Positions 3,847 through 56,253 of a DNA stretch of 56,733 bases are shown here, one piece after another. The position numbers were made by a program, and so were the translations under genes. The stretch spans positions 1 through 56,733 of the forward strand of contig JACPHR010000021.1 of NCBI GenBank assembly GCA_016188455.1, written 5' to 3'. A model generated the notes under the pieces. That model saw nothing but the letters and a program-made list of their open reading frames with translations, made no database searches and was not told the DNA's origin. Every line of letters starts with the position of its first letter. Positions within the stretch are counted from its first letter, which is position 1. Source of the DNA: Candidatus Tayloriibacteriota bacterium. Lineage in GTDB: Bacteria; Patescibacteriota; Minisyncoccia; Phycocordibacterales; SIBU01.

Positions 3847-3859
3847 AAAAGCAATTTCT

Positions 3860-3908
3860 GTATCATTCGCAGTTATTAGTAGTATTAGTATAATTCGTAT
3901 ATTGGTAT
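3860..3908. repeat. family-A inverted-repeat element, right arm (loaded copy)
   Basis: GTATCATTCGCAGTTATTAGTAGTATTAGTATAATTCGTATATTGGTATG. Its last bases supply the ATG of the next ORF (3907). Confidence 0.75.
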
Positions 3909-4554
3909 GGCCAGTCCCACAAAGGCGACGCAGGAGTTCGTGCCGGTCAAAGAAGTCCGCGACGGCATTATCATTCTCAAAGACGGCTCGTTCCGCGCCG
4001 TTCTTATGACATCGTCCTTAAATTTCGCCCTCAAATCGGAGGATAATCAAAACGCCATCATCTTGCAGTTTCAAAACTTCCTCAATTCGCTTGATTTTTC
4101 CATCCAGCTGTTTATTGAATCCAGAAAGCTGGACATCAGGCCGTATCTGGCGCTCCTGGAAGGCCGATACAAAGAACAGGCGACCGACCTGATGAAGGTC
4201 CAGACCAGAGAATACATAGAATTCATTAAAAATTTCACGGAGAACGCGAGCATCATGACCAAAACTTTTTTCGTGGTCGTACCTTACGCGCCGGCGCCGC
4301 TCCAAGCCAAAGGCGGAGTGGTGGAGCTGGCCGGCAAACTGCTAACGCGTAAGGAGGCCGAAGAGAAAGTGGAGAAAAAGCAGGATACCTTTGAAGAAAA
4401 CCGCAGCCAGCTTTTGCAGCGGCTATCGGTGGTGGAGCAAGGCTTGCTGCGCTGCGGCATCAGGGCCGTGGAGCTAGGCACGGAAGAAGTGGTTGAGTTG
4501 TTTTATAAGATTTTCAATCCCGGCGACACCGAGAAGCCCATTCAGATAAATTAG
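3907..4554 (+). CDS. hypothetical protein resembling the N-terminal (non-ATPase) domain of Gram-positive VirB4/ConE proteins
   Basis: ATQEFVPVKEVRDGIIILKDGSFRAVLMTSSLNFALKSEDNQNAIILQFQNFLNSLDFSIQLF resembles the N-terminal region of conjugative VirB4-type ATPases. It has no Walker motifs and lies directly upstream of the ATPase gene. Confidence 0.45.
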   Translation: MASPTKATQEFVPVKEVRDGIIILKDGSFRAVLMTSSLNFALKSEDNQNAIILQFQNFLNSLDFSIQLFIESRKLDIRPYLALLEGRYKEQATDLMKVQTREYIEFIKNFTENASIMTKTFFVVVPYAPAPLQAKGGVVELAGKLLTRKEAEEKVEKKQDTFEENRSQLLQRLSVVEQGLLRCGIRAVELGTEEVVELFYKIFNPGDTEKPIQIN

Positions 4555-4574
4555 TCCCTAATTTATCTGAAGTT

Positions 4575-4682
4575 GATACCAATATACTAATGCATACGAA
4601 TCTACAAATAACTGCGAATGGAACTCACTCTTTTTCACATTAGTAGTTATTCGTAGTATTAGTATAATTAGCAGATTAGTAT
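4575..4682. repeat. family-A inverted-repeat element (empty, ~17-nt loop)
   Basis: Left arm GATACCAATATACTAATGCATACGAATCTACAAATAACTGCGAATG and right arm CATTAGTAGTTATTCGTAGTATTAGTATAATTAGCAGATTAGTAT. It fills the 3907..4554 / 4681..6501 spacer, and the ATG at 4681 lies at the arm end. Confidence 0.75.
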
Positions 4683-6501: not shown

Positions 6502-6617
6502 AAATTAAAATATTAAAAATCAAAGTGACAATGAAAAGTTAAAAATTACTAATTCCTCGTATCCAGAAGTTTTTAATTTTAATCTGTCATTTTCCATTTT
6601 GATATTTCATTTTTCAT
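6500..6617. repeat. family-C inverted-repeat element (empty)
   Basis: Left arm GAAAATTAAAATATTAAAAATCAAAGTGACAATGAAAAGTTAAAAATT and right arm GTTTTTAATTTTAATCTGTCATTTTCCATTTTGATATTTCATTTTTCAT. It fills the virB4 / 6630 spacer. Confidence 0.75.
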
Positions 6618-6629
6618 ATTCACCTAGTT

Positions 6630-7574
6630 ATGGCACAAAAACTTTGGTCTGAAAACAAAGAGAAAAAGAAAGATGGACCAGACATCTCCAACACCGAGTG
6701 GGGTATGGTAATCTCGCTTCTTTTTATAGTTGACGGCATTCAAATCGGTCTTGACCTCTTGTTTCAAATAGGCGTTATTGTCAACCGCTTTATTGATGTC
6801 GTGGTGGGGTTCGCCTGGCCGACTTACCTCTACTTGCGCGGCGTGAACTTGAAAAGCGTGAAGGTGGTCGGTAGTATACTGCTGACTTTTTTCCTTGAGG
6901 AAATCCCCGATGTGGACGCTTTGCCGCTTTGGGGCGCCGACGGGCTCTTCGTGCTTTCTGTCACCAAAGCGGAAGAAAAAATTAAAGAGGAAACGGGGGT
7001 TGATGTTGAAAAAGCCGCGGCGCTTGCCGGAGGAGGGGGCACGGTGGAAAGTGAGGGGGGCGGTTTGGCCGCGGGCGAAGCGGCGGAAGCAGGCGGCGCG
7101 GCGGCCGAGGGGACGGCAGGGGCAAGAGGGGAAGCTGAAACTTTGGCAGAGGGTGAAGGGGTTGGAGCGGCTGAAGGAGGGGAAAGGGGCGGAGTGGAAG
7201 CCGAAGGGCCTCCTGGAGCGGCTGAAGGAGAAGGTGAAGAGGAAGAACAAAAAGAGGGAACGCAAGAACAAGCAAGAGAGAAAAAAGAAAAGGAGGGTGA
7301 GGAAACGCCGGAAGAAAAAAAGAAAAAAGAAGGAGAGGAAAAGGCTAAAGGGGAAGACAAGAAAAGACCTCGAGCTCGCGAGGAAGGTTTTGGTTTCGGC
7401 GGAGGTCAAGGGAGGAGGGAAGGCGCGGCGGGAGCGGGTTCCGACCCTCTCAATTTGCGAGGGGGGCCAGACGAAAGGCGAAAATCTGAAAAAGAGTCCG
7501 AGCGCTTGCACAGCAACCTTTTGGACCTGTCGCTCTCCTACGGCGAACGGAAGAAGCGGCAGGAAGAGGAGTAG
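6630..7574 (+). CDS. membrane protein with long Gly/Ala/Glu/Lys-rich disordered tail
   Basis: The N-terminal ~110 aa contain 3-4 hydrophobic helices. The remainder is GA-rich low complexity (GEAAEAGGAAAEG.., EEKKKKEGEEK). Operon context supports this frame; the other open frames here are artefacts of the purine-rich tract. Confidence 0.5.
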   Translation: MAQKLWSENKEKKKDGPDISNTEWGMVISLLFIVDGIQIGLDLLFQIGVIVNRFIDVVVGFAWPTYLYLRGVNLKSVKVVGSILLTFFLEEIPDVDALPLWGADGLFVLSVTKAEEKIKEETGVDVEKAAALAGGGGTVESEGGGLAAGEAAEAGGAAAEGTAGARGEAETLAEGEGVGAAEGGERGGVEAEGPPGAAEGEGEEEEQKEGTQEQAREKKEKEGEETPEEKKKKEGEEKAKGEDKKRPRAREEGFGFGGGQGRREGAAGAGSDPLNLRGGPDERRKSEKESERLHSNLLDLSLSYGERKKRQEEE

Positions 7575-7579
7575 ATAAA

Positions 7580-7690
7580 CATACCAATATACTAATGCAT
7601 ACAAATCTACGAATGGCTACTAATGTTACAACTGAGAGTCTGATTCGTAGTTATTAGTAGTATTAGTATAATTCGTATATTGGTATTGGT
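7580..7690. repeat. family-A inverted-repeat element (empty)
   Basis: Left arm CATACCAATATACTAATGCATACAAATCTACGAATGGCTACTAATG and right arm GATTCGTAGTTATTAGTAGTATTAGTATAATTCGTATATTGGTATTGGT. Confidence 0.75.
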
Positions 7691-7715
7691 GCCTGCCAAG
7701 TGATAAAATAGAACC

Positions 7716-8747
7716 GTGATGAAATACTTCTTTATTGCACTTTTGCTAATATCCGCCACATTAGTACCGAATGGTGTCTATGGACAGGCCTTCCAAAGCC
7801 TCGGCGGCGAGGCAAGTAATGTGACTGTGCGCACCGAACCGCCAGCGCCCGGGCCAAACCAGTTTGTCAGCGCCATTATTGAAAGTTACGCCACGGACCT
7901 CAACCGCGCCGACATTGCTTGGTTCCTCAACAACAAGTTGGAAAAGGAAGCCGTCGGCGCAAAAACCTTTCTGTTCAAAACCGGCAGAGCCGGCAGCGTC
8001 TCAAATATTTTGATTGTCATAAAAACGGCCGAAGGCGAAACTCTCCAGCAAGTTCTCAACATCCGGCCCGCGTCGCTTGACCTCGTCTGGGAGGCCCAGT
8101 CCTACACGCCGCCTTTCTACCGCGGCAAAGCCCTTTACCCCTATCAAGGAACGGTCAAGCTCGTGGCCATGCCGAATATCGTAACTGAAACCGGCGCGAC
8201 CGTAAGCGCTAAAAATCTTGTTTATACCTGGTCAGTGGATGGCGATGTTGTCACCAGACTTTCAGGCTACGGTAAGAATTTCATATTTTTTAACGGCTCT
8301 ATACCGCTCGGCCCCGCGACCATTGAAGTGGAAGCGGCGTCACTTGACAAAAAATACAAAGCCACGGGCTCGGTGACACTCAGCCCGCAGGGCTCGGAAG
8401 TTTTGGTTTATGAGGACAATCCGCTCTACGGCGTGCTTTACAATAAAGCGCTCGGGGGCAATGTCACGCTCCAAAACGAGGAGATTAAACTAGCCGGCAT
8501 CCCTTATTTCATCGGGGTGAAGGAGCGGGAGAACGCCGGTCTCGCTTACGAATGGCGGCTGAACAACGAGCTGGTCAGCGGCGGGGCCAAAAGCAGTCTG
8601 GCCTTCAAACAGAGCGGCGGCGCGGGCGGCACAGCCTTGGTCTCGCTTCAAATTTCCAATCCGGCTAAAATTTTCCAATTTGCCAACGTCAGTCTTTCCT
8701 TGTCCTTCGGCCAAAAATCAGCCCCCAACTTATTTGGAGCGCCATGA
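7716..8747 (+). CDS. secreted hypothetical protein
   Basis: Signal-peptide-like N-terminus MKYFFIALLLISATLVPNGVYGQA. Its stop overlaps the next start (ATGA at 8744-8747), indicating translational coupling with the pilin-like gene. Confidence 0.5.
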   Translation: MMKYFFIALLLISATLVPNGVYGQAFQSLGGEASNVTVRTEPPAPGPNQFVSAIIESYATDLNRADIAWFLNNKLEKEAVGAKTFLFKTGRAGSVSNILIVIKTAEGETLQQVLNIRPASLDLVWEAQSYTPPFYRGKALYPYQGTVKLVAMPNIVTETGATVSAKNLVYTWSVDGDVVTRLSGYGKNFIFFNGSIPLGPATIEVEAASLDKKYKATGSVTLSPQGSEVLVYEDNPLYGVLYNKALGGNVTLQNEEIKLAGIPYFIGVKERENAGLAYEWRLNNELVSGGAKSSLAFKQSGGAGGTALVSLQISNPAKIFQFANVSLSLSFGQKSAPNLFGAP

Positions 8748-9679
8748 GATTAAAAAAGCGTAAAAAAATATCAGAAAGGCTGGCGATATTCGGCTTCCTT
8801 ATTTTATTTTCCAGCATTTTGTCGGTGCCTGTGTTTTCAGCCTACGGCTTAGACTATGTGCCGCTGGCACCGATAGAGGGCACAACACTGACCTGCGCAC
8901 AACCTCCCTGCGGCACAAACTTAAGTTATTACCTCACCGGCCTATTTAAAGTCGGCATCGCCGTGGCGGGTGTTTTGGCGTTTCTGGTGATTGTCTGGGG
9001 CGGCTTCACCTATCTTTCCACCGATGTCATTACCGGCAAGGAGGAAGGCAAGGCGAGAGTGGAGCGCGCCTTAGGCGGCCTTATCATTGCCCTCGCGGCC
9101 TATATTCTTCTCAACACTATCAACCCGCAATTAGTTAAGCTTAACCTCAATTTCGGCCCGAGGGCGGAGCTGAGAGAGGGCTTGGCCAGACCAGCTGACC
9201 TTATTTCCGAGAACACGAATCTAAGAAGTATAGAAACGTTGACGGCGGATAGGGCTGAATTTAGAGGAATGAACGCGGCCCGGTTGAATCAAGAGATTCA
9301 GGCTTTGAACGCAGTTTCACAAACAAGAGGCTTAACAGCCGAGGAAGAAGAAAGACTGGTAGAGCTTGGCATAATAAGGGACGGTAGCACAGCAATGAAT
9401 AAAATTGACGAAGTACAAGGCACTATCACTTCTGGATTAGGTAGCTCTGGTTTACCCTCATCACTAGCCAGAGACGCGCGCGCTGCTTTAGAGCAGCTCC
9501 GGATTGAAGTCAACACACGCATAGCGGCAATGGCGGCTACCGGGGCAACCGTGGGACAAATGCAGGCAGTCCGAGACAGATTTAACACAGCAGCCAGATT
9601 GATAGAAGCCTGTATTACTTACAGAAAGAATATTGTAAATGACAATGCGCGGGCCAATTTCAATCGTTTCTGCAAATAA
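8744..9679 (+). CDS. T4SS pilin-like protein (TrbC/VirB2-type, CPR pilin family) with C-terminal extension
   Basis: Signal/TM region, a Cys pair (CAQPPC), then YLTGLFKVGIAVAGVLAFLVIVWGGFTYLSTD..GKEEGKARVERALGGLIIALAAYILLNTINP: two TM helices around a charged loop, as in VirB2/TrbC-like pilins. An extra ~180 aa follows. Confidence 0.6.
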   Translation: MRLKKRKKISERLAIFGFLILFSSILSVPVFSAYGLDYVPLAPIEGTTLTCAQPPCGTNLSYYLTGLFKVGIAVAGVLAFLVIVWGGFTYLSTDVITGKEEGKARVERALGGLIIALAAYILLNTINPQLVKLNLNFGPRAELREGLARPADLISENTNLRSIETLTADRAEFRGMNAARLNQEIQALNAVSQTRGLTAEEEERLVELGIIRDGSTAMNKIDEVQGTITSGLGSSGLPSSLARDARAALEQLRIEVNTRIAAMAATGATVGQMQAVRDRFNTAARLIEACITYRKNIVNDNARANFNRFCK

Positions 9680-9693
9680 CCTGTGTCAAAAAT

Positions 9694-9741
9694 ATGTCCA
9701 AAAAAACCGCCTTCATTATCATAATTATATTTGTCCTCCTT
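9694..9741 (+). repeat. direct repeat: duplicated first 16 codons of the gene at 10354
   Basis: ATGTCCAAAAAAACCGCCTTCATTATCATAATTATATTTGTCCTCCT matches 10354-10401 (ATGTCCAAAAAAACCGCCGCAATTATTATAATCGTCTTCGTCCTCCT) at about 40/48 positions. This copy hits TAA after 16 codons. Confidence 0.8.
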
Positions 9742-9748
9742 TAACTTC

Positions 9749-10249
9749 ATGACTGCGCCCAAACACAACTTTGCGTTTATAGATGCCCAGAATGTCCATT
9801 TGGGCATCCAGTCGCTCGGCTGGGAGCTTGATTGGGGACGATTCAGAGTGTATCTGCGGGATAAATACAAAGTAGCCGAAGCCTATTTGTTTCTTGGATA
9901 TGTACCTGACAATCAAAAACTGTACGAGTATTTGCAAAAATCCAGTTTCATTCTAATCTTCAAACCGCTAGTTTGGAACAAAGACGGAACCGTAAAAGGA
10001 AATTGCGATGCTGACTTAGTACTTCACACGATTCTTAAAATCAATGAGTACGATAAGGCAATTATTGTAACAAGCGACGGAGATTTTTACTCGCTCGTAA
10101 GACACCTTTACGAAAATGGTAAGCTACTTTTTGTCTTGAGTCCGTATGTAAAAACTTGCTCAAAACTTCTGCGAAGGGAAGCTAAAGAGAAAATTTACTC
10201 GATGGATAATCTGTGGCAGAAACTTGGACGAGAAAAGTTTAGAAAATGA
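9749..10249 (+). CDS. NYN (LabA-like, PIN-related) domain protein
   Basis: NFAFIDAQNVHLG...AYLFLGY...NCDADLVLH...AIIVTSDGDFYSLV is the typical acidic-residue pattern of NYN/LabA ribonuclease-like domains. Confidence 0.7.
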   Translation: MTAPKHNFAFIDAQNVHLGIQSLGWELDWGRFRVYLRDKYKVAEAYLFLGYVPDNQKLYEYLQKSSFILIFKPLVWNKDGTVKGNCDADLVLHTILKINEYDKAIIVTSDGDFYSLVRHLYENGKLLFVLSPYVKTCSKLLRREAKEKIYSMDNLWQKLGREKFRK

Positions 10250-12718: not shown

Positions 12719-13510
12719 CTAATTCTGCTCTTTCTTATTCGTAGCTATTAGCATATTAGTATCCATTGGTATATTGGTATGGCGTGAGCCAAAAAAAGAC
12801 CGCCTGACGTAAAGCTCCTGGCCAATGGCAAAAAGGTTGCTGGTAATCCAGTAAAGAGAAACCGCGCCAGGAAGATTGAAAGCAAAGACCCCGACAAGGG
12901 CTGGCAGGAAGTAACGCATTTGGAAATTAAGGTTTCTGGCGAAATCATCCTTCATAGAAACTCCAGGCGCTTTAGGCTTTATGGCCGGCATAGAGAATCG
13001 AACTTGAAAATACTGGCTGACGGAAACCAGAATCGCAAGCAAGAGAGAGCCTTTGGTAATATCAACAAAGCCCAAAAAATACATGGTAACTTTAGGGGCG
13101 GAAACTAAAGGGTACAGCAAGTCAGTTTTAATTTCAGGCAAGCCGCCGCTGTAAAAAATATAGTAGAGGGCAAAAATGATGGGGATTTGGATAAGCACCA
13201 GAAAAAAAGTGGAAAAAGGGTTAACCTTTTTTTCTTTGTAGAAAGCCATGGTCGCCTTGGCGTGGGCTTCTCGGTCGCCTTTGTGTTTTTCTTTCAGAAG
13301 AGCGAGGTCGCTTTCAAGCGCTTTCATCTTAAGCTGGGTCCTCGTGGCTTTTTGTGAAAGCGGAAAGAGAATGAGCTTGACTAGGAAGGTAAAAACAACC
13401 ACCGAGATTCCGGCGTCGGCCCAGGGCATGATACTCATGAGAAAAATCAGGCCGTTGTAGAGTGGTTGGTATACGACAAGATTAAAAAAATGACTGAGCA
13501 TGACAAACAC
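12719..13510 (-). CDS. yidC: YidC/Oxa1-family membrane protein insertase
   Basis: Short Gram-positive-type YidC: VVFTFLVKLILFPLSQKATRTQLKMKAL, PFSTFFLVLIQIPIIFALYY, NLFAIGQ. Conserved rnpA-yidC-jag order. The last ~20 codons are encoded by a family-A repeat arm. Confidence 0.85.
   Translation of the reverse strand: MFVMLSHFFNLVVYQPLYNGLIFLMSIMPWADAGISVVVFTFLVKLILFPLSQKATRTQLKMKALESDLALLKEKHKGDREAHAKATMAFYKEKKVNPFSTFFLVLIQIPIIFALYYIFYSGGLPEIKTDLLYPLVSAPKVTMYFLGFVDITKGSLLLAILVSVSQYFQVRFSMPAIKPKAPGVSMKDDFARNLNFQMRYFLPALVGVFAFNLPGAVSLYWITSNLFAIGQELYVRRSFFGSRHTNIPMDTNMLIATNKKEQN
12735..12782. repeat. family-A repeat, solo right-arm-type copy overlapping the yidC 3' end
   Basis: TTATTCGTAGCTATTAGCATATTAGTATCCATTGGTATATTGGTATGG aligns with the right arms at 3860, 7642, 33212 and 53422. 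Confidence 0.7.
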
Positions 13511-13560
13511 TATAATACTAAAATAAGAATTATACTAATCCTACAAATAGCTGCGAACTA
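13511..13560. repeat. family-A repeat, solo left-arm-type copy
   Basis: TATAATACTAAAATAAGAATTATACTAATCCTACAAATAGCTGCGAACTA resembles the left arms at 4575 and 7580. Confidence 0.5.
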
Positions 13561-13564
13561 TAGA

Positions 13565-13678
13565 GCACAAAACACAATATCCAAAATCCAAACAAAACAC
13601 AGATGTTCAGAACACGAACCAAGCATTGTTTGTGAAATTTGGAATGTTTTGTGTTTTGTTTGGATTTTGTGTATGTAC
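13565..13678. repeat. family-D stem-loop (AAAATCCAAACAAAACACA-type) in the rnpA-yidC spacer
   Basis: The left arm ..CCAAAATCCAAACAAAACACAG is complementary to the right arm TGTTTTGTGTTTTGTTTGGATTTTGTG (19-nt perfect core). Confidence 0.6.
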
Positions 13679-14475: not shown

Positions 14476-14588
14476 TCCCGTTAAAAGCTTACAAACAGCC
14501 CTTATAACATTTTTATGCCAAGCCGCGCAGATTTAATAAATAATAAAGCGTACGGAAACGACTGGGTCGTTCCCCGCTTCTAACGGGA
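14476..14588. repeat. family-E stem-loop element ending at the dnaA start codon
   Basis: Arms TCCCGTTAAAAGC (14476-14488) and GCTTCTAACGGGA (14576-14588). The last A is the A of the dnaA ATG. Confidence 0.55.
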
Positions 14589-15934
14589 TGGACAACGAGC
14601 AACTCTGGAAAAATGTGTTGGTGGAAATTGAACTGGCGGTCTCAAAAGCCAATTTCAATACCTGGTTTAAAGACACCCGGATCCTCAAGCAAGAGGAAGG
14701 GGTGGTCTTCGTATCGGTGCCCAACACCTTCGCCAAAGACTGGCTTTTCAACAAATACCACAAGATAATCATGAAAGCTTTGCGAAATCTGGCGGAGCAT
14801 ACCCGGGCGCTGGAATACGTCATTACCAAAGAAGAGCCGAAACAGAAAGAGCTTGAGCCGGCTCGGGGTGCTTTCTTGGCGGGCGCGCCGGAGCTGCCGC
14901 TTCAAGATTTTTACGTTGATAAAGACAACAATTTAAACCCCAGATACACTTTTGAATCTTTCGTGGTGGGGCCTTTCAACGAACTGGCCCACGCGGCGGC
15001 CCAAGCGGTGGTGAAAAAACCGGGCGCCGCCTACAACCCGCTTTTTATTTACGGCAACACCGGCCACGGCAAGACTCACCTTATCCAGGCCATCGGCAAT
15101 TACATTAAAAATCAAACCGCTGGCAAAAAAGTCTTTTACGTCACGTCGGAAAAATTCACCATTGATTACGTCAATTCGGTTCAAGCCAACAAGGCCAACC
15201 TCTTTAAAGAGCGGTACAGAAAATACGACGTGCTTATCATGGACGACATTCAATTTTTCTCCAACAAGGAACAAACCCAGGAGGAGCTATTTCATCTTTT
15301 CAATTCAATGTACGAGAGCAACAAACAAATCGTTTTTTCCTCCGACAAGCACCCCAACTTTATCCCTAATCTGGCGGACCGCTTGAAATCCCGCTTCGCG
15401 GCCGGCATGATTGTGGATATTCCGACCCCCGATCGCGAATCCCGCTTGGCCATTCTCAAAACAAAAGCGCGGCTTTCTGCCGTGTCCATCGCCGATGAAG
15501 TGCTGGAGCATTTGGCAACCACGATTGACGGCAACATCCGCGAACTGGAAGGCATGCTCAATGTTTTGGTCTGCCAATCACAGCTCAAAGGCAAAGAGCT
15601 CGGCTTAGGTGAAGTGAAACATCTCATTAAGAACAGCGCCAAACCGAAAAAGGCGGTGTCGGTAAAGGAGGTGACCAAGGCCGTGGCCAGCTTCTTCAAT
15701 ATTGAGGAAGAGGATATCTACGAAAAGACCCGCCGAAAGGAAGTGGTAAAGCCCCGCCAGCTCGTGATGTACATCCTGCGGGAAGATTTCAGCGTGTCTT
15801 ACCCTTTGATCGGCCAAAAGCTAGGCGGCCGCGACCACACGACAGTTATTCATTCCTGCGAGAAAATAAAAAATGAGTTGAAGTTAAACGCGGCGCTCGG
15901 CCAAGAGATTGACCAGATTCGAACCTTGCTCTGA
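14588..15934 (+). CDS. dnaA: chromosomal replication initiator DnaA
   Basis: AAA+ Walker A GNTGHGKTHL, Walker B VLIMDDIQF and the C-terminal DNA-binding signature SYPLIGQKLGGRDHTTVIHSCEKI. Confidence 0.95.
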   Translation: MDNEQLWKNVLVEIELAVSKANFNTWFKDTRILKQEEGVVFVSVPNTFAKDWLFNKYHKIIMKALRNLAEHTRALEYVITKEEPKQKELEPARGAFLAGAPELPLQDFYVDKDNNLNPRYTFESFVVGPFNELAHAAAQAVVKKPGAAYNPLFIYGNTGHGKTHLIQAIGNYIKNQTAGKKVFYVTSEKFTIDYVNSVQANKANLFKERYRKYDVLIMDDIQFFSNKEQTQEELFHLFNSMYESNKQIVFSSDKHPNFIPNLADRLKSRFAAGMIVDIPTPDRESRLAILKTKARLSAVSIADEVLEHLATTIDGNIRELEGMLNVLVCQSQLKGKELGLGEVKHLIKNSAKPKKAVSVKEVTKAVASFFNIEEEDIYEKTRRKEVVKPRQLVMYILREDFSVSYPLIGQKLGGRDHTTVIHSCEKIKNELKLNAALGQEIDQIRTLL

Positions 15935-16161
15935 CAAGACGCCAAGGACAGCCTGGGGAAAAGTTTTGGGTAAAATGTGAACAAAAGATGTGAACAAAAG
16001 TTATCCTGGCTGGCGTTAAAACCAATCTCAACATCTTACCCCTCGCTTTCCCCAGATTATCCTTATCACCTTTTCCCAAAAACCTCTGCTAAACAAAGTT
16101 ATGTTAGGTAAAAACTATTTATCCCCAATGTTAATAGTAGTAACTGTATTTAATAAAGAAT
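15935..16161. promoter_or_regulatory. candidate oriC (dnaA-dnaN spacer with DnaA-box-like repeats and an AT-rich tract)
   Basis: TGTGAACAA occurs twice (15976-15984 and 15989-15997; reverse complement TTGTTCACA), plus TTATCCTTA (16057-16065) and TTATCCCCA (16119-16127). An AT-rich tract runs from about 16100 to 16160. Confidence 0.5.
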
Positions 16162-17259
16162 ATGAAAGTTGAATGTGTACAGAATAAACTGAGCGAGGCT
16201 TTGTACCAAGCGGAAAAAATTACCGGCAAAAATTTAAACCTGCCGGTGCTCTCGTGCGTTTACATTGAAGCGAAAAAAGGCCACCTTTTGTTGCGCGCCA
16301 CCAATCTAGACCTTGGCTTTCAGAGTACTGTGCCGGCCAAAGTGGATGCTGAAGGAATAGTAGCTGTGCCGGCCGGCGCCTTAAGCACCTTCATTGCCAA
16401 CCTTCCGCGGGAAAAAAGCGTTAAACTGGAAAGCAGCAGCACGCTTTCAGTCATTACCCATAAAAGCCGAAGCACCATCAAATGCCTGCCTCACGAGGAT
16501 TTCCCGACGATTCCCGAACTGCCGAAAACCGAAGTCCGCGAAATGCCAGCCAAGGATTTTGTTTCGGGCCTTAAGGCGGTCTGGTACAGCTCGTCAATTT
16601 CAAGCATTAAGCCGGAGCTCTCCAGTGTGTGCGTCTACCCGGAAGAACATGAGATGGTTTTCGCGGCTACTGATTCTTTTCGGCTGGCCGAAAAAAAGAT
16701 AAAGACCAAAGGACTAAAGGAATTTGAGCGCGTGCTCATCCCTTTCAAAAATGTGGCGGAAATTATCAGAGTGCTCGAGCGGGCGGAAGGGGTGGTTGAA
16801 ATCCGCTTCAGCAAACACCAGATAGCTTTCGCTTTTGACGGCACCTATCTCACCTCCCGGGTGGTTGACGGCACCTTTCCCGATTACCGCCAGATTATTC
16901 CCAAAGAATTTAAAACCGAAGCGGTGCTCTTGAAGGAAGACCTGATACAATCTCTGAAAATCAGCACCATTTTCAGCGACGCTTTCAACCAGGTGAGCAT
17001 GTCCATCGCGCCGAGCGCGAAGCGTTTTTCCCTGACCGCCAAAAACGCCTCTCTCGGAGAAAATACCACCACCCTTGACGCCGCCCTGTCGGGCGCCGAT
17101 GCCGAAGCCAATTTCAATTTCCGCTACATAGCCGACTGCCTCCAGGCCATCGGTGCCGACAGCGTCTCTCTCTCCTTCGCCGGCCCGAGCCGGCCAGTGG
17201 TCATCCGCGGGGTTTCGGACAAGAGTTTTACTTATCTGGTGATGCCGATGAACAGGTAG
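16162..17259 (+). CDS. dnaN: DNA polymerase III beta sliding clamp
   Basis: 365 aa, three-domain length, canonical position after dnaA. LRATNLDLG, DSFRLAE and the C-terminal ..YLVMPMN.. are typical of DnaN. Confidence 0.9.
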   Translation: MKVECVQNKLSEALYQAEKITGKNLNLPVLSCVYIEAKKGHLLLRATNLDLGFQSTVPAKVDAEGIVAVPAGALSTFIANLPREKSVKLESSSTLSVITHKSRSTIKCLPHEDFPTIPELPKTEVREMPAKDFVSGLKAVWYSSSISSIKPELSSVCVYPEEHEMVFAATDSFRLAEKKIKTKGLKEFERVLIPFKNVAEIIRVLERAEGVVEIRFSKHQIAFAFDGTYLTSRVVDGTFPDYRQIIPKEFKTEAVLLKEDLIQSLKISTIFSDAFNQVSMSIAPSAKRFSLTAKNASLGENTTTLDAALSGADAEANFNFRYIADCLQAIGADSVSLSFAGPSRPVVIRGVSDKSFTYLVMPMNR

Positions 17260-17361: not shown

Positions 17362-17401
17362 GTCCATTGATAAGATTGCTATAGCAATCTTATCAATGGA
17401 C
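17362..17401. terminator. 40-bp perfect palindrome between convergent dnaN and PBP1A
   Basis: GTCCATTGATAAGATTGCTATAGCAATCTTATCAATGGAC. Its position fits a bidirectional terminator, but there is no U-run. Confidence 0.45.
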
Positions 17402-24734: not shown

Positions 24735-25398
24735 AAAAACTTTTGTGTGCTAAACTCTTCTCGGTTAGAGATTTGTCGCGTCTGACGTATTTTTTGGAAA
24801 ACTTCCACTTCTTCCTTCCAAGATATAAATCTCTAAGCAATTGCCCCCCACTTTTGATTTCACCCTCACAAGGGAGAAATTGAGTTGTCTCACAAACAAA
24901 GGCAAAGATGAAATCAAAAGTGGGGGGTTCCTAGTATTTTTTTGAGGACATTCTGGTTACCCCGTTCGCGGGGTTGGCTGGGGTTATCCTTGGGAATCTA
25001 CTTAACTTTTAGTACGGATATTAAAAGCATTGCTTAGAGATTTATGTTTTGGAAGACCTGCCCGCCCAAGTTTTGTCTGACAAAACTTGGGCGGGGTGAT
25101 TTCTTCGGCCTCTCCTATAGTACCCCCGCCATTTTCTAAAGGCAACGGCTAAAAACTTTCTAACAGGAAAAATACGCAGGGGCAAGTTCTCTGTCCTTTC
25201 TTCTTTTTATCAAGTTTCTTAACTTGATATTCCAGCGAGGGTGGTTCTCCGAGCGGGTTAGCGGAGCAATCGTAAAAAATCAGAAAATTTTAGGAAAATG
25301 AAACTGTTTGACCCCGCATTGCAGGGGGGGGTTCATTTTCGGTCAAGAAATTTTCTTGATTTTTGAGATTGCGGAGCGCTTCAAAGAACTATCCAAGC
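24735..25398 (+). other. 664-bp non-coding island with nested long helices (candidate structured RNA or nested palindromic elements)
   Basis: There is no credible ORF. The outer helix 24816-24844 / 25027-25055 (~29 bp with two G-U pairs valid only on the plus strand) encloses a 19-bp perfect hairpin (24844-24862 / 24909-24927) and a C(UUCG)G hairpin (24960-24973). Further hairpins lie at 25059-25097, 25208-25228 and 25293-25341. Confidence 0.35.
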
Positions 25399-27168: not shown

Positions 27169-27208
27169 ATGCTACCTAACTCAGGCGTACGCCTGAGTTA
27201 GGTAGCAT
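27169..27208. other. 40-bp perfect palindrome in the pilB-upstream divergent spacer
   Basis: ATGCTACCTAACTCAGGCGTACGCCTGAGTTAGGTAGCAT. It could be an operator or a stem-loop element. Confidence 0.4.
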
Positions 27209-27735: not shown

Positions 27736-28200
27736 ATGGAATTTACGAGCACAAGCTCGGCGGACACGAAAAAGTTTGCCGCCGAATTTATCAATAAAAA
27801 AAAAGCCCCGCCCCCGCCCGCGGCGGGCGGGGGCGGGGCCACTGTCGTCGGTCTTTACGGCAACCTCGGCTCGGGTAAGACCACTTTCGTTCAGTGTGTC
27901 GCCGAACTTTTAGGCGTTGCCGAGCCCGTTACCAGCCCGACTTTTGTCATTCTAAAAACCTATAAACTAAAAACTAAAAACTATAAACTTCTCCATCACC
28001 TTGACGCGTACCGATTGAAAAGCGGGGACGATCTCCGCAAGCTTGGGTTTGAAAAACTGCTCCGCGACAAAACCAGCCTTATTCTTATAGAATGGGCCGA
28101 CCGCGTCGCGGGTATCCTTCCGCCCGGCCATATCAAAGTTTATTTTGAGTTTGTGGATGATAAGACTCGCCGACTCAGCTTCGTGTCAGGGGTCAGTTGA
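27736..28200 (+). CDS. tsaE: tRNA t6A37 biosynthesis ATPase TsaE
   Basis: Walker A GNLGSGKTTF, SPTFVI and HLDAYRL are the YjeE/TsaE signatures. It contains a GC-palindrome-encoded insert (APPPPAAGGGGA). Confidence 0.8.
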   Translation: MEFTSTSSADTKKFAAEFINKKKAPPPPAAGGGGATVVGLYGNLGSGKTTFVQCVAELLGVAEPVTSPTFVILKTYKLKTKNYKLLHHLDAYRLKSGDDLRKLGFEKLLRDKTSLILIEWADRVAGILPPGHIKVYFEFVDDKTRRLSFVSGVS

Positions 28201-33211: not shown

Positions 33212-33258
33212 GAATTCGTAGCTATTCGTATCATTCGCACCATTTGTATATTGGTATG
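33212..33258. repeat. family-A repeat, right-arm-type solo copy
   Basis: GAATTCGTAGCTATTCGTATCATTCGCACCATTTGTATATTGGTATG. Confidence 0.65.
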
Positions 33259-40422: not shown

Positions 40423-40507
40423 GGAAGGGTCGGATAATGGTATTCCACCGGTCTTGAAAACCGGCGCCGGCAACGGCTTGCGAGTTCGAGTCTCGCCCCT
40501 TCCGCCA
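40423..40507 (+). tRNA. tRNA-Ser (anticodon TGA), long variable arm, CCA encoded
   Basis: Hand fold: GGAAGGG TC GGAT AATGGTA TTCC A CCGGT CTTGAAA ACCGG (variable arm CGCCGGCAACGGCTT) GCGAG TTCGAGT CTCGC CCCTTCC G CCA. Confidence 0.85.
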
Positions 40508-40657
40508 TGAACCGAGAGGACTGCTAAACGCAGTCCGAGCGGCTCATCATTAGCGTGATAGAGGCGAGACTCGAACGGCAGAGCAAAATTTTCAGCAGAA
40601 AATTTTGGGAGCCGGTGCCCAGACCAATTTTTGCGGCGGCAAAAATTTAGTCGCGGG

Positions 40658-40679
40658 CGAGTCTCGCCCCTTCCGCCAT
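40658..40679 (+). repeat. 22-nt direct repeat of the tRNA-Ser 3' end (att-like)
   Basis: CGAGTCTCGCCCCTTCCGCCAT is identical to 40487-40508. The intervening 150 nt contains an inverted T-arm copy (GGCGAGACTCGAAC, about 40563-40576). Confidence 0.8.
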
Positions 40680-40723: not shown

Positions 40724-42151
40724 ATGGCGATAATTTATTTGGTACAATCCACTCTTGATAAAACAAAAATCTACATCGGAAAAACCGATAGATCTTTGGC
40801 GGAAAGAAGAAAAGAACATGAGGATAAAGCAGCTAATCATAGTTCTACTAAGTTTCATTGCGAATTATTAAGGAAAGGGCTTGATAATTGGGAGTGGCGG
40901 ATACTTGAAACTCTCGATCCTGCTGCAAATGTTTTTGAAAGAGAAAAATATTGGATGCAAAAATTTGATGCACTTCCAATTGATCTATTAAATACAGCAT
41001 CAACAAATAGCAACACTGAAACGAAGCGTAAAAAAGCAGATACTCTCGCTCGTGCTGTTGGAGGTAAGAATGTTTGGAAAAGCGCCAGTGCCAAGAAATG
41101 GATGATATTGTCTGGAAAATTGAAACCGCTAGAGAATACTGAAACAAAGATTAAGTATGAAGGATTGCTTGATGCTGAGCGAAAAACTGGAGAAACAAGG
41201 GGTGCGATCAAAAAATCCTGTGATACAGGAATACCAACTTCTCGTGGCAAGCTTTATGCGTGGTTAGATATCAAGGGAAATCTAAAACTAACCGAAAACC
41301 ATATTAAGAAAGTTCCTAGGTTAAAGAGAGTTAAAAACAAAACCACGGGAGAAATTTATAATTCATTAGCAGATGCTGCCAAAAACATCGGCGTATCAAT
41401 GAACATAATTAGAGACGCATGTAATGGTAAATACAAAACTACAAAAGGTCAGATAGTTTGTTTTTTGGATGACAATGGGAACGAAGTATTAACCGAAACT
41501 CACAAAAATACCTTACTTCGGTTAGAAGAAAAAAAGAAAATTGGATTTGTGGCTTGGCGTATAGAAGATAAAAATCGCAGTAAACCTTATATATTTGACT
41601 CAATTCTTGAATTGATAAACTCAATAAAAAGGGACTCTGGCGAGGAGCTTTCTCGGAGTCATATCCTTGATATTTGCAAGGGTAAAAGACAGCACGACCA
41701 AGGTTGGAGAGTAGCATACTACGACAAAGAAAAGAAAGAACCTATTTTCAGAAACAAGCATCTACTACCAATTAGGGAAAAAATTCGTGGGGTAATCTGT
41801 TTAAATGATAATAAAGTTTTTTCAAATGCAACTGAGGCTGGCAAATTTTACAATTTAGAAAGTGGCCAAATACTGCTTTGTTGCGCCCGGAAATTAAAAA
41901 GTACAGGGAGAAATTTAAAAACAAAATACAAGTTTGCACACACCGACAAAGAAGGAAAACCGATCTTAACCCCATTACACAGTGAATCAGATTCCTGGCT
42001 CGGCAAGAAAATATTTTGCCCCGGGTTGGGAAAAGAATTTAGATCTGTGGCAGAATTTTGCAGAGAAACAAATATCCCAGCGAAACGTGTAAGTAAATAC
42101 CTAAAAGGGAAAAATATTGATCTTGGTGGCCTAACACTTGTTCAGGTGTAA
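40724..42151 (+). CDS. GIY-YIG homing-endonuclease-like protein with about five NUMOD1/HTH-like DNA-binding repeats
   Basis: The N-terminus has IIYLV..(11)..IYIGKT, R..EH and E.EKYWM (GIY-YIG). Repeated ~35-aa modules follow (..F.S...A.K..G.S...I...C.GK..). The gene is markedly AT-rich relative to its surroundings. Confidence 0.7.
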   Translation: MAIIYLVQSTLDKTKIYIGKTDRSLAERRKEHEDKAANHSSTKFHCELLRKGLDNWEWRILETLDPAANVFEREKYWMQKFDALPIDLLNTASTNSNTETKRKKADTLARAVGGKNVWKSASAKKWMILSGKLKPLENTETKIKYEGLLDAERKTGETRGAIKKSCDTGIPTSRGKLYAWLDIKGNLKLTENHIKKVPRLKRVKNKTTGEIYNSLADAAKNIGVSMNIIRDACNGKYKTTKGQIVCFLDDNGNEVLTETHKNTLLRLEEKKKIGFVAWRIEDKNRSKPYIFDSILELINSIKRDSGEELSRSHILDICKGKRQHDQGWRVAYYDKEKKEPIFRNKHLLPIREKIRGVICLNDNKVFSNATEAGKFYNLESGQILLCCARKLKSTGRNLKTKYKFAHTDKEGKPILTPLHSESDSWLGKKIFCPGLGKEFRSVAEFCRETNIPAKRVSKYLKGKNIDLGGLTLVQV

Positions 42152-46527: not shown

Positions 46528-46538
46528 GAAAAAACCCT

Positions 46539-46585
46539 GATACCAATATACTAATTGGTACGAATCTACGAATGGCTACGAAAAT
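46539..46585. repeat. family-A repeat, left-arm-type solo copy
   Basis: GATACCAATATACTAATTGGTACGAATCTACGAATGGCTACGAAAAT. Confidence 0.65.
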
Positions 46586-46661: not shown

Positions 46662-46733
46662 GCCCTCATAGTTTAATGGATAGAATGCAAGATTGCGGAT
46701 CTTGCGATCGAGGTTCGATTCCTCGTGGGGGCA
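46662..46733 (+). tRNA. tRNA-Arg (anticodon GCG), CCA not encoded
   Basis: Hand fold: GCCCTCA TA GTTT AATGGATA GAAT G CAAGA TTGCGGA TCTTG CGAT CGAGG TTCGATT CCTCG TGGGGGC A. Confidence 0.8.
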
Positions 46734-46865
46734 CCCGACCAGAAAATGTCAAGTTCTCTCGGCATTTTCTGTGTCGCTGGAGGACCCCGAGGAATCGAAG
46801 GACGGAGCGAGCGAAGGCGAGCGAGTCGGGGTCGCGGGCGAGTACAGCAGTGCGAGACCCGTGAC

Positions 46866-46885
46866 CGATTCCTCGTGGGGGCACC
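46866..46885 (+). repeat. 20-nt direct repeat of the tRNA-Arg(GCG) 3' end
   Basis: CGATTCCTCGTGGGGGCACC is identical to 46716-46735. The 130-nt insert contains an inverted T-arm copy (CCCCGAGGAATCGAAGG, about 46786-46802). Confidence 0.8.
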
Positions 46886-46912: not shown

Positions 46913-47503
46913 ATGGCACGGATACCAATTAAAGAACTGAAAAAAGACATTGTCCTAAAAACCACGCTTTGCGGGACGCCTTTTACCTTTCATACCACAT
47001 GGGGACTTTTCAGCCCGGAAAAAATTGATGAGGGCACCATGGCGCTCTTGGAGCATGTTGTTGTCAAAGAGGGCGACGCTATTTTAGATTTGGGTTGCGG
47101 CTACGGCGCTCTCGGCATTCCGCTGGCGAAATTGGCTTCGGGTGGTACCACGCATATGGTAGATAAAGATTTTGTGGCGGTGGAATACGCGGAGAAAAAC
47201 GCCTTGCTTAACAATGTAAAAAATGTTGAGGTCTACTTAAGCAACGGCTTTGACCAAGTGCCTCGGGACACCCGTTTTGACACTATCGTCTCCAATCTTC
47301 CCGCCAAGATAAGCAAGGAATTTTTCTGGATACTGTTTGAAGAAGCCCGTCAGCGACTATCGCCCGGAGGCACTTTTTATGCGGTTACCATTGCCGGTCT
47401 CCGCCGATTCGTGGAAAGAAATTTCAAAACGATTTTCGGCAATTATGAACTGCTGGCGAGCAAGGGCACATATTTCGTGGCCAAAGCGCAAAACAACTCA
47501 TGA
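46913..47503 (+). CDS. class I SAM-dependent methyltransferase (MTS / RsmC-RsmD-like small-domain type)
   Basis: ILDLGCGYGALGI (motif I), VDKD..AV (motif II) and FDTIVSNLP (NPPY-like motif IV). Confidence 0.8.
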   Translation: MARIPIKELKKDIVLKTTLCGTPFTFHTTWGLFSPEKIDEGTMALLEHVVVKEGDAILDLGCGYGALGIPLAKLASGGTTHMVDKDFVAVEYAEKNALLNNVKNVEVYLSNGFDQVPRDTRFDTIVSNLPAKISKEFFWILFEEARQRLSPGGTFYAVTIAGLRRFVERNFKTIFGNYELLASKGTYFVAKAQNNS

Positions 47504-47954: not shown

Positions 47955-48530
47955 ATGATTTCCCATCTTAAAGGAAGAATAATGGACGCGGGAGAGCGAT
48001 TTGTAGTTTTGGAAACCAACGGGGTAGGCTACAAAGTTTTCGTGACGTCGGAGACTCTGCGCGTCCTGCAAAAGCCGTCCGGCGAAACGAGCCTGTGGAC
48101 TTATCTCGCCGTGCGGGAAAACGCTCTGGACCTCTACGGCTTCACGGCCAAAGACGAACTTGAATTTTTTGAACTGCTCATTACCGTCTCCGGCATCGGT
48201 CCGAAAACCGCCCTTGGCATTTTAAGCGTTACCACTATAAAAAATCTCCGCCAGGCCATCGCCTCGGGCGAAACGGCGCATCTGACAAAAGTGTCCGGCA
48301 TTGGCAAAAAAGTGGCGGACAAAATCGCGCTTGAGCTCCGCGACAAGCTTGATTTTCTAGAGAGCGAAAAAGATACAGGCGACATGCGCGACGAATCGGA
48401 CACCATTGAAGGACTCAAGGCTTTAGGCTACAGCGAGCGCGAGGCGCGAGAGGCGCTGAAGAAACTGCCGAAAAAAATCTCTGGCACGAGCGAAATGGTG
48501 AAGCAAGCGTTAAAATTGCTCGGGGAATAA
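47955..48530 (+). CDS. ruvA: Holliday junction DNA helicase subunit RuvA
   Basis: MISHLKGRI......VVLETNGVGYKV, HhH motifs (LLITVSGIGPKTALGIL, KVSGIGKKVADKIALEL) and C-terminal domain III (GLKALGYSEREAREAL). Confidence 0.9.
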   Translation: MISHLKGRIMDAGERFVVLETNGVGYKVFVTSETLRVLQKPSGETSLWTYLAVRENALDLYGFTAKDELEFFELLITVSGIGPKTALGILSVTTIKNLRQAIASGETAHLTKVSGIGKKVADKIALELRDKLDFLESEKDTGDMRDESDTIEGLKALGYSEREAREALKKLPKKISGTSEMVKQALKLLGE

Positions 48531-49090: not shown

Positions 49091-49822
49091 ATGCTTGAAC
49101 ATCACTTAAAAGCAGCCGGATTGAACGAAAAAGAAGCCAGCGTGTACCTGGCGATTCTTGAACTGGGCGAATCATCCGTCCAGAGAATCGCCGATAAGGC
49201 GGGTATAAAAAGAACGACAGTATATGATGTCATTGAATCTCTGAAGGAAAAAGGACTGATCGGCAATACTCTTAAAGGCAAGCGGCGAAAATTCTTTGTG
49301 GACGATCCACGCGGAATTTTAAGGATGCTTGACGAGAAGAGAAATAAAATTGAGAAAATCATTCCTGATCTGCTTTCTAAGTCGGGAGCGTTCGATAAAA
49401 AACCCCGTTCCCGTTTCTTCGAGGGAATCGAGAGCATGAAGGAGATCTATCATGACATTCTCAAGCACTCCGATGCTCCAATAAAATCCTGGATGACTGA
49501 AGCATCCCTTGATATGTTTGATCGGGATTTCATTGAATTCTTCAACTCAAATCGCATTAAAAACAAAATATGGGCGCAGATGATCGGCCCTGACACGCCG
49601 CGACTGCGGGAATTTCAAAATCAAGATGCGAAATTCTTGAGAAAAACAATTCTGGACCGGCACAAAGTGTTTCCTTTCGGAGTAGAAATTACTTTATACG
49701 GCAATGGGTCAATAGGCATGATTTCCTTTGAGGAAAAAATCGGACTGATTTTTGAAAGCCAGAAACTCTCTTTGGCTTTGCAAAATGCGTTCGACGGGCA
49801 TTGGACATTCCTTGGAGGGTAG
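49091..49822 (+). CDS. TrmB-family HTH transcriptional regulator
   Basis: L...GLNEKEASVYLAILELGESSVQRIADKAGIKRTTVYDVIESLKEKGLI is the TrmB-type winged helix, followed by a C-terminal effector-like domain. Confidence 0.65.
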   Translation: MLEHHLKAAGLNEKEASVYLAILELGESSVQRIADKAGIKRTTVYDVIESLKEKGLIGNTLKGKRRKFFVDDPRGILRMLDEKRNKIEKIIPDLLSKSGAFDKKPRSRFFEGIESMKEIYHDILKHSDAPIKSWMTEASLDMFDRDFIEFFNSNRIKNKIWAQMIGPDTPRLREFQNQDAKFLRKTILDRHKVFPFGVEITLYGNGSIGMISFEEKIGLIFESQKLSLALQNAFDGHWTFLGG

Positions 49823-49850
49823 TCAACAGGAATAAAAGAAAAACGGCCCC

Positions 49851-49993
49851 GCGACGAATCGGACGCCATTGAAGGACTCAAGGCTTTAGGCTACAGCGAG
49901 CGCGAGGCGCGAGAGGCGCTGAAGAAACTGCCGAAAAAAATCTCTGGCACGAGCGAGCGCATCAAGCAGGCGCTGAAAATTTTAGGGAAATAA
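49851..49993 (+). pseudogene. orphan duplicate of the ruvA 3' end (domain III fragment)
   Basis: 143 nt align to 48388-48530. The first 106 nt have a single mismatch and the last 37 nt are diverged (SERIKQALKILGK* versus SEMVKQALKLLGE*). The terminator at 49997-50021 follows. Confidence 0.8.
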
Positions 49994-53397: not shown

Positions 53398-53421
53398 TAA
53401 CAATAATAATTTCGCATTTAA

Positions 53422-53472
53422 CATTAGTAGTTATTCGTAGCATTAGTATGATTCGTATATTAGTATCGGTAC
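53422..53472. repeat. family-A repeat, right-arm-type copy immediately upstream of ATG 53476
   Basis: CATTAGTAGTTATTCGTAGCATTAGTATGATTCGTATATTAGTATCGGTAC. Confidence 0.65.
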
Positions 53473-55406: not shown

Positions 55407-55536
55407 AGACTTGAATAAAGCGGCTTTTTCCAGTATCGTGTTCCAATCGCGCCCATAGCTCCCGCCTTCGTCCCGCACAATGCGGGACTATGGACGGGCA
55501 AGCAGTTTGACCTCGCTATGGGCTTCATAAGAATAC

Positions 55537-55609
55537 GCGCCCATAGCTCAGTTGGTAGAGCACCTGCCTTTTAAGCAGAGGGTCGCAGGTTCGATTCCTG
55601 CTGGGCGCA
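55537..55609 (+). tRNA. tRNA-Lys (anticodon TTT), CCA not encoded
   Basis: Hand fold: GCGCCCA TA GCTC AGTTGGTA GAGC A CCTGC CTTTTAA GCAGA GGGTC GCAGG TTCGATT CCTGC TGGGCGC A. Confidence 0.85.
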
Positions 55610-55660
55610 CACGCCAGAAAAATCTTCACTGCTGAAGATTTTTCTGGACGTGCGCGGGAC
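55605..55660 (+). repeat. 56-nt tRNA trailer hairpin, copy 1 (after tRNA-Lys)
   Basis: GCGCACACGCCAGAAAAATCTTCACTGCTGAAGATTTTTCTGGACGTGCGCGGGAC has one mismatch to 56142-56197. It starts inside the acceptor 3' strand. Confidence 0.85.
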
Positions 55661-56072
55661 AGAGGCATGTTCGGTCAGCGGGCCGAACAGCCGAGTCCGG
55701 GTCGGGAAATTTTACTCGTGACGACGAGTAAAATATTCCTGACCACAAGACGAAAGATCTAAACTGCTTTAGATTTTTCGATAACGGTGTGAGCCGGAGC
55801 AGTGTTCGGCGTTTCGCCGAACCGCGAGGCGGAGTCGCGAGTTCCGAGACCGACGGGGCGAGGAAACTTGTGACCACAAGTGAACCTAATAAAATTGACA
55901 ATTAGTGATTCTGTTCCAACCGTGGAATATTACAGTAAAAATTATTATTTATGCCAAAATTAACTAATCAAGAAATTAAGGAGAATGGGTATTACTGGAC
56001 AATTAGCAATATGACCCCCCACCAGAAAATATGCTTATAACAATCTCTTGTTCGGCGCACCATTAAAAATAC

Positions 56073-56146
56073 GCGCGTTTAGCTCAGTTGGTCAGAGCAC
56101 CTCGTTTACACCGAGGGGGTCGGGAGTTCAAATCTCTCAGCGCGCA
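56073..56146 (+). tRNA. tRNA-Val (anticodon TAC), CCA not encoded
   Basis: Hand fold: GCGCGTT TA GCTC AGTTGGTCA GAGC A CCTCG TTTACAC CGAGG GGGTC GGGAG TTCAAAT CTCTC AGCGCGC A. Confidence 0.85.
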
Positions 56147-56197
56147 CACGCCAGAAAAATCTTCACTGCTGAAGATTTTTCTGGACGTGCACGGGAC
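56142..56197 (+). repeat. 56-nt tRNA trailer hairpin, copy 2 (after tRNA-Val)
   Basis: GCGCACACGCCAGAAAAATCTTCACTGCTGAAGATTTTTCTGGACGTGCACGGGAC. Confidence 0.85.
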
Positions 56198-56253
56198 GAG
56201 TCGGGTGAGAAGCTTCGTGGCCACTGAATTAATATTAATCCAAAAAATAAATT

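Follow-up and report, generated by a model that had tools for sequence, protein, structure and literature searches.

Structured inserts 3' of tRNA genes in Paceibacteria, and a possible miniature T-loop insertion element at tRNA-Arg(GCG)

The window, i.e., the whole 56,733-nt stretch of DNA that was analyzed, contains an intact tRNA-Arg(GCG) gene followed by a compact set of repeats and hairpins and then by a methyltransferase gene. The features at this locus are listed below, where R1 denotes a covariance model that was built from an alignment of 26 structured cores and run on the window.

46662..46735, + strand: tRNA-Arg(GCG), intact (ARAGORN; Rfam tRNA, 64.4 bits)
46716..46735, + strand: direct repeat copy 1 (A), tRNA position 56 to the 3' end (repeat search, 100%)
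46740..46771, + strand: hpA, hairpin immediately 3' of the tRNA and centre of the A/A' inverted repeat (14-nt arms; fold)
46785..46799, + strand: A', inverted copy of the tRNA's own T-loop, T-stem 3' strand and acceptor start (repeat search)
46789..46876, + strand: diverged type-B structured core with helices P1, P2 and P3 (R1, 22.7 bits, E 2.5e-4, filters off)
46866..46885, + strand: direct repeat copy 2 (A''), exact, followed by native flank and then the methyltransferase gene
46913-47503: methyltransferase gene downstream of the unit

The gene neighbours in the window are bacterial (RuvX, RuvA, PilM, a Mur ligase, DnaA/DnaN and a type IV secretion ATPase), and the best named relatives of the adjoining methyltransferase belong to Candidatus Taylorbacteria/Paceibacterota of the candidate phyla radiation. 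As dnaA and dnaN both lie within the window (14588-17259), it probably spans the chromosomal replication origin region.

An earlier note, made from the sequence alone, had described a recurrence of the tRNA-Arg 3' end with an inverted T-arm copy and hairpins in between, and these elements were all recovered. The two exact copies of the 20-nt end, CGATTCCTCGTGGGGGCACC, at 46716-46735 and 46866-46885, are spaced 150 nt apart, and the inverted copy and the internal hairpin lie at 46785-46799 and 46740-46771. Over 15 nt, A' is 93% complementary to 46714-28, and over 13 nt it is 92% complementary to the second copy, at 46866-78. As a whole, the 229-nt stretch is much more stable when folded than shuffles of it (z = -6.4). 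The insert is identical in an independent Logan assembly (L008) and is therefore not an assembly artefact. An empty site would be marked by a direct join of tRNA-Arg to GAAAAAGGTGGCTG; a Logan unitig breaks 10 nt ahead of the second repeat, but this break could not be interpreted as such a polymorphism.

The same layout had been claimed for tRNA-Ser(TGA), and this also holds, as the following features show.

40423..40507, + strand: tRNA-Ser(TGA), intact, CCA encoded (ARAGORN; Rfam)
40507..40547, + strand: hpA (inverted-repeat search)
40560..40576, + strand: A', 17 nt, 94% complementary to 40484-40500 (repeat search)
40565..40668, + strand: canonical type-B core (R1, 96.6 bits; 55-nt homology to L012/L013)
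40658..40679, + strand: direct repeat copy 2, 22 nt exact, followed by native AT-rich flank

The direct repeat at 40487/40658 is 22 nt when exact and 25 nt at 96%, and the Ser insert is 82% identical to the element of a relative (L012/L013) across 55 nt. The two inserts also have in common a 13-mer, GTCGCGGGCGAGT, with 2 matches against 0.11 expected, at 46831-46843 in the Arg insert and at 40650-40662 in the Ser insert, one position away from where it was first placed. It had been taken as a link between the loci, but the covariance-model alignment puts its two copies at different model positions, and the 13-mer is therefore neither a homology signal nor a landmark of the family. Pairwise MAFFT alignment of the Arg and Ser inserts gave nothing convincing, and their homology is visible only by the covariance model. 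Since both inserts match this core model, they are homologous. A 475-aa ORF of homing-endonuclease type (GIY-YIG plus NUMOD/I-HmuI-like; 40724-42151, + strand) begins 42 nt past the tRNA-Ser direct repeat, a position where relatives have no such ORF, and a small GIY-YIG ORF adjoins tRNA-Phe in L020.

Between the inverted and the direct arms lies a recurring core, of which there are at least three types (A, B and C). The type found in the window, type B, can be written as GGCGGAG-P2(loop CAGCAG)-GAGCCGGTGCCCAGAC-P3(loop GACGG)-AGTCGCGGG; about 85 nt are conserved and fold as a three-way junction (P1/P2, P3). In the alignment of 26 type-B cores 96.6% of cells are paired, compared with at most 54% in slid controls, and 100 cells carry double changes, compared with 30 in shuffles. 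The loops of the core are invariant, and on the tRNA strand G-U pairs in the core exceed A-C pairs (13 vs 5). Type A (GAA-GCCYNNTTGAGC-hairpin-CCAANNRGGGGTACTG-stem/TGTAA/stem) likewise folds as a three-way junction, with compensatory change in 18 of 29 pairs. The type-A core was also considered as hammerhead-like or k-turn-like, and both readings were dropped.

In the window, R1 finds at least four core matches within 16 kb, linked to Ser, Lys, Arg and Val. No exact tail duplicate was found at the remaining three tRNAs of the window, and the matches beyond Arg and Ser are as follows.

55646..55753, + strand: type-B-like core 3' of tRNA-Lys (R1, 41.7 bits, E 6e-9)
55783..55884, + strand: second, weak core-like unit 3' of tRNA-Lys (R1, 11.3 bits, E 0.15)
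56138..56218, + strand: weak, truncated core-like sequence 3' of tRNA-Val (R1, 15.1 bits, E 0.018)

The first Lys core has no T-arm arms and is preceded by a hairpin (55611-55645) and the anti-acceptor GTGCGC. Its region is conserved in L010, and the second Lys unit is 87% identical to L010 18862-18990. Near-identical hairpins, ACGCCAGAAAAATCTTCACTGCTGAAGATTTTTCTGGACGTGC(G/A)CGGGAC, follow tRNA-Lys and tRNA-Val (55611-55660 and 56148-56197), with outer bases complementary to the tRNA 3' end (GCGCAC/GTGCGC), and the hairpin of tRNA-Arg(GCG) has similar ends (CCAGAAAA...TTTTCTG).

A mirror-image layout is seen on the 5' side of tRNA-Lys, where the first 13 nt of the gene are duplicated (55449-55461 vs 55537-55549) with a gap of 75 nt to the tRNA start and an inverted GCTATGGGC in between (55515-55523). 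A similar duplication, 89 nt upstream, involves the first 19 nt of tRNA-Arg(GCG) in L015 (8155-8173 vs 8263-8281). Both duplications stop in the conserved D-loop, and the native promoter-like flank TTTTACACTTCAC remains with the upstream partial copy; it is to this upstream copy of the window that the intact tRNA start of L010 aligns.

Across loci, the order of a complete unit runs from the tRNA up to T55 through the tail (C56 to the 3' end), hpA, an anti-acceptor, AG-hpB-GT, an anti-T arm ending in ...GGATTCGAAC, the core and the second tail copy to the native flank. A unit is about 150-240 bp long (150-236 bp among the loci measured) and contains no ORF or gene remnant. The hairpin hpA often consists of an A-tract, a GC stem and a T-tract, so that a terminator-like element, which has to be added to the layout first described, stands between the tRNA and the rest of the unit. 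The inverted copy A' is often split by the small hairpin hpB, and the native flank after the second repeat often has a terminator of its own.

The start of the direct repeat correlates with core subtype: it is position 56 in 12 loci with B1 cores and position 60 in 9 loci with B2 and A cores. All junctions lie within the T-loop, where 8-11 nt are identical among tRNAs. Of 23 loci, 11 have a repeat that stops precisely where the tRNA ends and four have one that continues 6-15 nt into the locus-specific trailer; the length of the repeat varies from 14 to 33 bp. Where a gene lacks CCA the second copy usually lacks it as well, which shows that the copies were made from DNA and not from mature tRNA. 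A retro-copy of a mature tRNA 3' fragment was rejected on this ground, as only L051 ends in ...GCCA. Also rejected was the idea of a primer-binding site in which the arm matches mature tRNA including CCA, because the palindrome extends beyond the tRNA to the genomic trailer, and only genes that encode CCA have it mirrored. Finally, the arm of L015 tRNA-Arg(GCG), TGGTGCTCCCG, is a perfect complement of the 3' strand plus an anti-CCA, whereas the actual 5' strand is GCTCTCG (U-G wobble). The arm therefore does not derive from a decayed tandem tRNA copy, in which it should correspond to the 5' acceptor strand.

Syntenic loci of relatives were obtained via homologues of the methyltransferase, and every tRNA in them was scanned. 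Among 20 tRNAs of related Paceibacteria, 11 are followed, no more than 260 nt downstream, by their own tail in inverted form over 10 nt or more, compared with none of 20 when the tail was reversed as a control, and four of the 11 have a direct copy of at least 12 nt as well. The tRNAs with tail copies are Ser-TGA, Arg-GCG, Arg-TCT, Arg-CCT, Val-TAC, Lys-TTT and Glu-CTC. The inverted copy matches the local tRNA in every case, and even rare T-loop variants are mirrored (TTCAATT, TCCGAT, TTCGAGT). Position 55 of the T-loop is a near-universal U. The element-linked tRNAs of L023 and L043 have the T-loop TCCGAT with C at this position, and their inverted arms mirror it.

One metagenome scan with the type-B core motif returned 56 loci. 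In about 31 of these, a tRNA on the same strand ends 67-152 nt upstream; they represent at least 15 tRNA species and one tmRNA-like 3' end (L037), and the tRNA-linked units are always on the tRNA strand. About 12 loci are true cores interrupted by a contig end, and about 12 are chance matches in coding DNA. The latter explanation applies to L031, L065 and L066, which have a tRNA-Gln 1301 nt upstream and were considered as a cargo-carrying version before being set aside as chance matches in a coding region of a high-GC organism. L038, which has a GC-rich P3, also belongs to Paceibacterota. Scans of viral contigs for type-A and type-B cores gave zero matches, and a genome-contig search with an M24 peptidase gave, among the matches listed, only distant Thermotogota and others.

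These results show that there is a family of structured inserts 3' of many tRNAs in Paceibacteria that is much larger than two loci. The proposal of an element was to be doubted if no other tRNA locus had the pattern and if the inserts did not align beyond the 13-mer; instead, many tRNAs and genomes have it, and the covariance model links both inserts. The family appears to be unannotated. Rfam searches over the inserts, at the gathering threshold and at E<=5, gave tRNA matches only and no ribozyme or sRNA, the inserts of L010, L012 and L014 had no Rfam match, and a literature search by topic and core sequence returned nothing relevant.

Comparison of loci in related genomes reveals turnover, in that an orthologous site may lack a unit or may contain a different core type or tandem units. 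At the tRNA-Arg(GCG) locus the window has a type B core, L014 a type A core plus a fragment with an arm matching tRNA-Arg(TCT), L015 a type C core, L018 types B and A, and L012 no unit. L012 also lacks a unit at tRNA-Ser; this empty site has an upstream flank homologous to that in the window and a downstream flank similar to the one past the window's second repeat. Tandem units are found at L015 Ser and in L067. L043 and L073 have the core, the repeat and 3 kb of flank in common and differ in their tRNAs, hpA and inverted arms, which indicates that cores recombine between loci.

The tRNA-Arg(GCG) position of L010 is occupied by a prophage-like element (1-9750), directly upstream of the methyltransferase gene. 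Its genes include a large serine recombinase, a terminase, a ParB-methylase, a PvuII-type restriction-modification system and a transposase. It also contains a LOOT RNA (1369-1487; Rfam RF03000, 87 bits), and a tRNA-tail-like GGTTCACGACCGAGCGGGGGCACCA lies near 9104-9128.

Our preferred explanation, to which we give a probability of roughly 0.5, is that 46716-46885 represents a single inserted member of a family of miniature, non-autonomous elements found 3' of Paceibacteria tRNA genes. On the best reading, the element is specific for the tRNA T-loop, possibly via a folded-hairpin attachment site. The earlier suggestion of a small non-autonomous element that targets or copies tRNA 3' halves is thus the one best supported by the comparative data, and it stands in part. 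The unit would sit in the T-loop, and the tRNA gene would therefore stay intact while the second tail copy downstream forms the direct repeat. Insertion at this universally conserved site might be carried out by a trans-acting recombinase or nuclease, with the core hairpins as the recognition module and with the tail, paired with its own inverted copy, as the folded attachment site. Such pairing would give the order direct - loop - inverted - body - direct. CTX-phage/XerCD integration and integron attC recombination of folded single strands leave this same order. After insertion, the inverted arm would decay and cores would recombine between loci.

Several points weigh against this reading. 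Among about 45 loci, no protein, whether a recombinase, an HUH enzyme, a reverse transcriptase or another, recurs beside the elements. A RAYT-like ORF did not recur in this sample of loci either, RAYT being the Y1 HUH transposase with which REP/REPIN repeats and their GTAG head are associated. No integrase domain was found in the window ORFs scanned. Cas1-solo was considered and dropped, as it was seen only in L010/L011. Moreover, since the arms match at least 15 tRNA species, simple excision and reinsertion would need an additional step that copies or selects arms, and since a double-stranded circle of 150 bp is implausible, the scheme requires an intermediate that is single-stranded or replicative.

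The covariation, the fixed orientation, the G-U excess and the conserved Lys-linked copies fit a functional RNA equally well. A tentative alternative, less probable than the element, is a structured RNA made by read-through from the tRNA, with a closing helix built from the tRNA's own T-loop, T-stem and acceptor, which would mimic or pair with the cognate tRNA. Possible roles include 3' processing, recruitment of RNase P/Z or the CCA enzyme, and action as a decoy or guide, with selection keeping the arms matched. The many compensatory changes and invariant loops of the core agree with this, as does the frequent native terminator after the second repeat, and the order anti-acceptor / small hairpin / T-stem 5'-like strand ... 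T-stem 3' / acceptor 3' looks like a tRNA in reduced form. However, the unit is missing at the same tRNAs of close relatives (L012) and at other tRNAs of the same genome and is therefore not essential, core types can replace one another at a single locus, and units may stand in tandem. In addition, tRNA and unit are separated by a terminator-like hairpin with A- and T-tracts, a trailer within the direct repeat would have no role in a mimic, and no Rfam family corresponds to the insert. The inverted arm is often reduced to a 7-10 bp helix of T-loop sequence that lacks an acceptor-like stem, while the direct copy is perfect (L022). This speaks against a strict form of the tRNA-like mini-helix, transcribed together with the tRNA, that the earlier note gave as its alternative. 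Mismatches between tail and inverted arm on the tRNA strand show no G-U enrichment (5 vs 18), in numbers too noisy to decide which strand is folded.

The element and RNA explanations are compatible, as a mobile element can carry an RNA. A further reading, which we regard as unlikely, is a new class of mobile element or RNA in CPR bacteria in which the variable arm serves as a guide. The inverted tail, fused to the conserved ~85-nt scaffold, would direct an enzyme acting in trans to the tRNA gene, or the tRNA, that matches it. Targeting of the T-loop would then be guided by structure or nucleic acid, and the arm would be re-templated from the target at each insertion.

Replication template switching in situ would dispense with a dedicated enzyme. 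Here, the strand would fold back at the terminator hairpin and then, through T-loop microhomology, copy a core from elsewhere, with cores spreading between tRNA loci by gene conversion. This accounts for locus-specific inverted and direct copies in the order direct-inverted-direct, for junctions confined to the shared T-loop nucleotides, for recombinant loci such as L043/L073, and for the mirror-image duplication of a tRNA 5' end that stops in the conserved D-loop. Nevertheless, we find it improbable, as each event needs three coupled switches and should thus be very rare, whereas units stand at most tRNAs in some genomes, and the sharp subtype-specific junctions (56 vs 60) together with a conserved core suggest a selected, specific process.

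A similarly low probability is given to the remaining explanation, in which the units are what is left of ordinary integrase-mediated islands or prophages after almost complete deletion, i.e., attL and attR with short arms: a tail repeat starting in the T-loop is reportedly the classical T-loop att signature, and both the prophage-like element of L010 (serine recombinase, terminase, ParB-methylase) and the 144-bp ruvA duplication around a 1.3-kb insert in the window are in line with it, but no unit has a gene remnant, an inverted arm is not a feature of attL/attR scars, and independent deletions would not leave the same ~85-nt covarying core, hairpin order and unit size at dozens of tRNAs in many genomes.

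Among known systems, the family lies closest in kind to tRNA-targeting integrative elements and to hairpin-type repeat elements, while departing from what defines each. T-loop integrative elements with tyrosine integrases also target the 3' part of a tRNA, leave a direct repeat from the T-loop to the tRNA end (here 20 nt at Arg and 22 nt at Ser, among 23 examples in the family), restore the gene by an element-borne copy, and use a tmRNA-like 3' end too, as in L037. In contrast, the units measure only 150-240 bp and have no integrase gene inside and no recurrent neighbouring protein, one core type is found at at least 15 tRNA species, and each unit holds an inverted copy of its target.

MITEs, REPINs and Correia-type repeats are likewise short, multi-copy, intergenic, hairpin-forming and non-autonomous, and they too break assemblies and mediate rearrangements. 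Dispersed copies are numerous in the present family as well, given the clustered matches in the window and the many contigs that end inside cores. However, MITEs have terminal inverted repeats that are constant within a family and short target-site duplications of fixed length (2-10 bp), whereas the arms of the units copy the adjoining tRNA and vary with it, the duplication is variable (14-33 bp), and location and orientation are strictly tied to tRNA genes.

With the folded single-strand sites of CTX phage (attP(+)/XerCD) and integrons (attC/IntI), the units have in common the integrated order, an imperfect hairpin set by structure rather than sequence, and an attC-like size (60-150 nt). The likeness is topological only, as the units lack a dif-like core and the GTTRRRY core site that belongs to the R''/L''...L'/R' hairpin of attC, and their target is the tRNA T-loop; the junction is GTTCGAAT/CGAATCC, with C and not R at position 4, and no IntI was seen in the sampled loci.

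The small RNAs linked to tRNAs (3' external transcribed spacer; tmRNA TLD, YrlA, mascRNA) are structured, lie directly 3' of a tRNA on the same strand and use a helix of acceptor/T-stem sequence, but in the units a core replaces the T-loop, there is no D/anticodon domain, presence is variable and tandem copies are possible. Dictyostelium TRE and yeast Ty3 are mobile elements that also home to tRNA genes as safe havens; unlike the units, they are eukaryotic retrotransposons guided by Pol III factors, with no copying of tRNA ends.

If the units are mobile, they would be an unusually small type of element that rewrites the 3' ends of essential single-copy tRNA genes without breaking them, and that uses the universally conserved T-loop as a landing pad in very reduced genomes. 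This would bear on tRNA genes as integration hot spots, on the evolution of folded-hairpin recombination sites, on CPR genome rearrangement, as cores recombine between loci, and on the origin of split, permuted or interrupted tRNA genes. If they are RNAs, an uncultivated phylum would have a large class of structured RNAs, linked to tRNAs, that is so far unannotated. Either way, they break metagenome assemblies, give rise to pseudo-tRNA fragments and spurious ORFs (e.g., ...KFSAENF...), and are missing from Rfam.

Other repeats in the window were also recorded. The last 144 bp of ruvA are duplicated at 89.6% identity (48387-48530 and 49850-49993), and the duplicates flank a 1.3-kb insert that encodes a TrmB-family HTH protein (49091-49822). 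It is the downstream copy that matches the ruvA of a relative (L010), and the insert therefore seems to have supplied a replacement for the gene end, in the manner of integrative elements. Intergenic repeats of ~45-50 nt, which make up a separate family, occur at 3420-3470, 3860-3910, 4576-4682, 7581-7686, 12737-12781, 13515-13565, 33214-33258, 46538-46582 and 53419-53466, with one copy just upstream of tRNA-Arg(GCG) and copies in relatives too (L012 9078-9107). They may serve as promoter or terminator modules, or represent a further repeat element. Many perfect or near-perfect intergenic palindromes of 31-40 nt are also present (17362-17401, 27169-27208, 25061-25095, 27805-27839 and others) and are probably bidirectional terminators.
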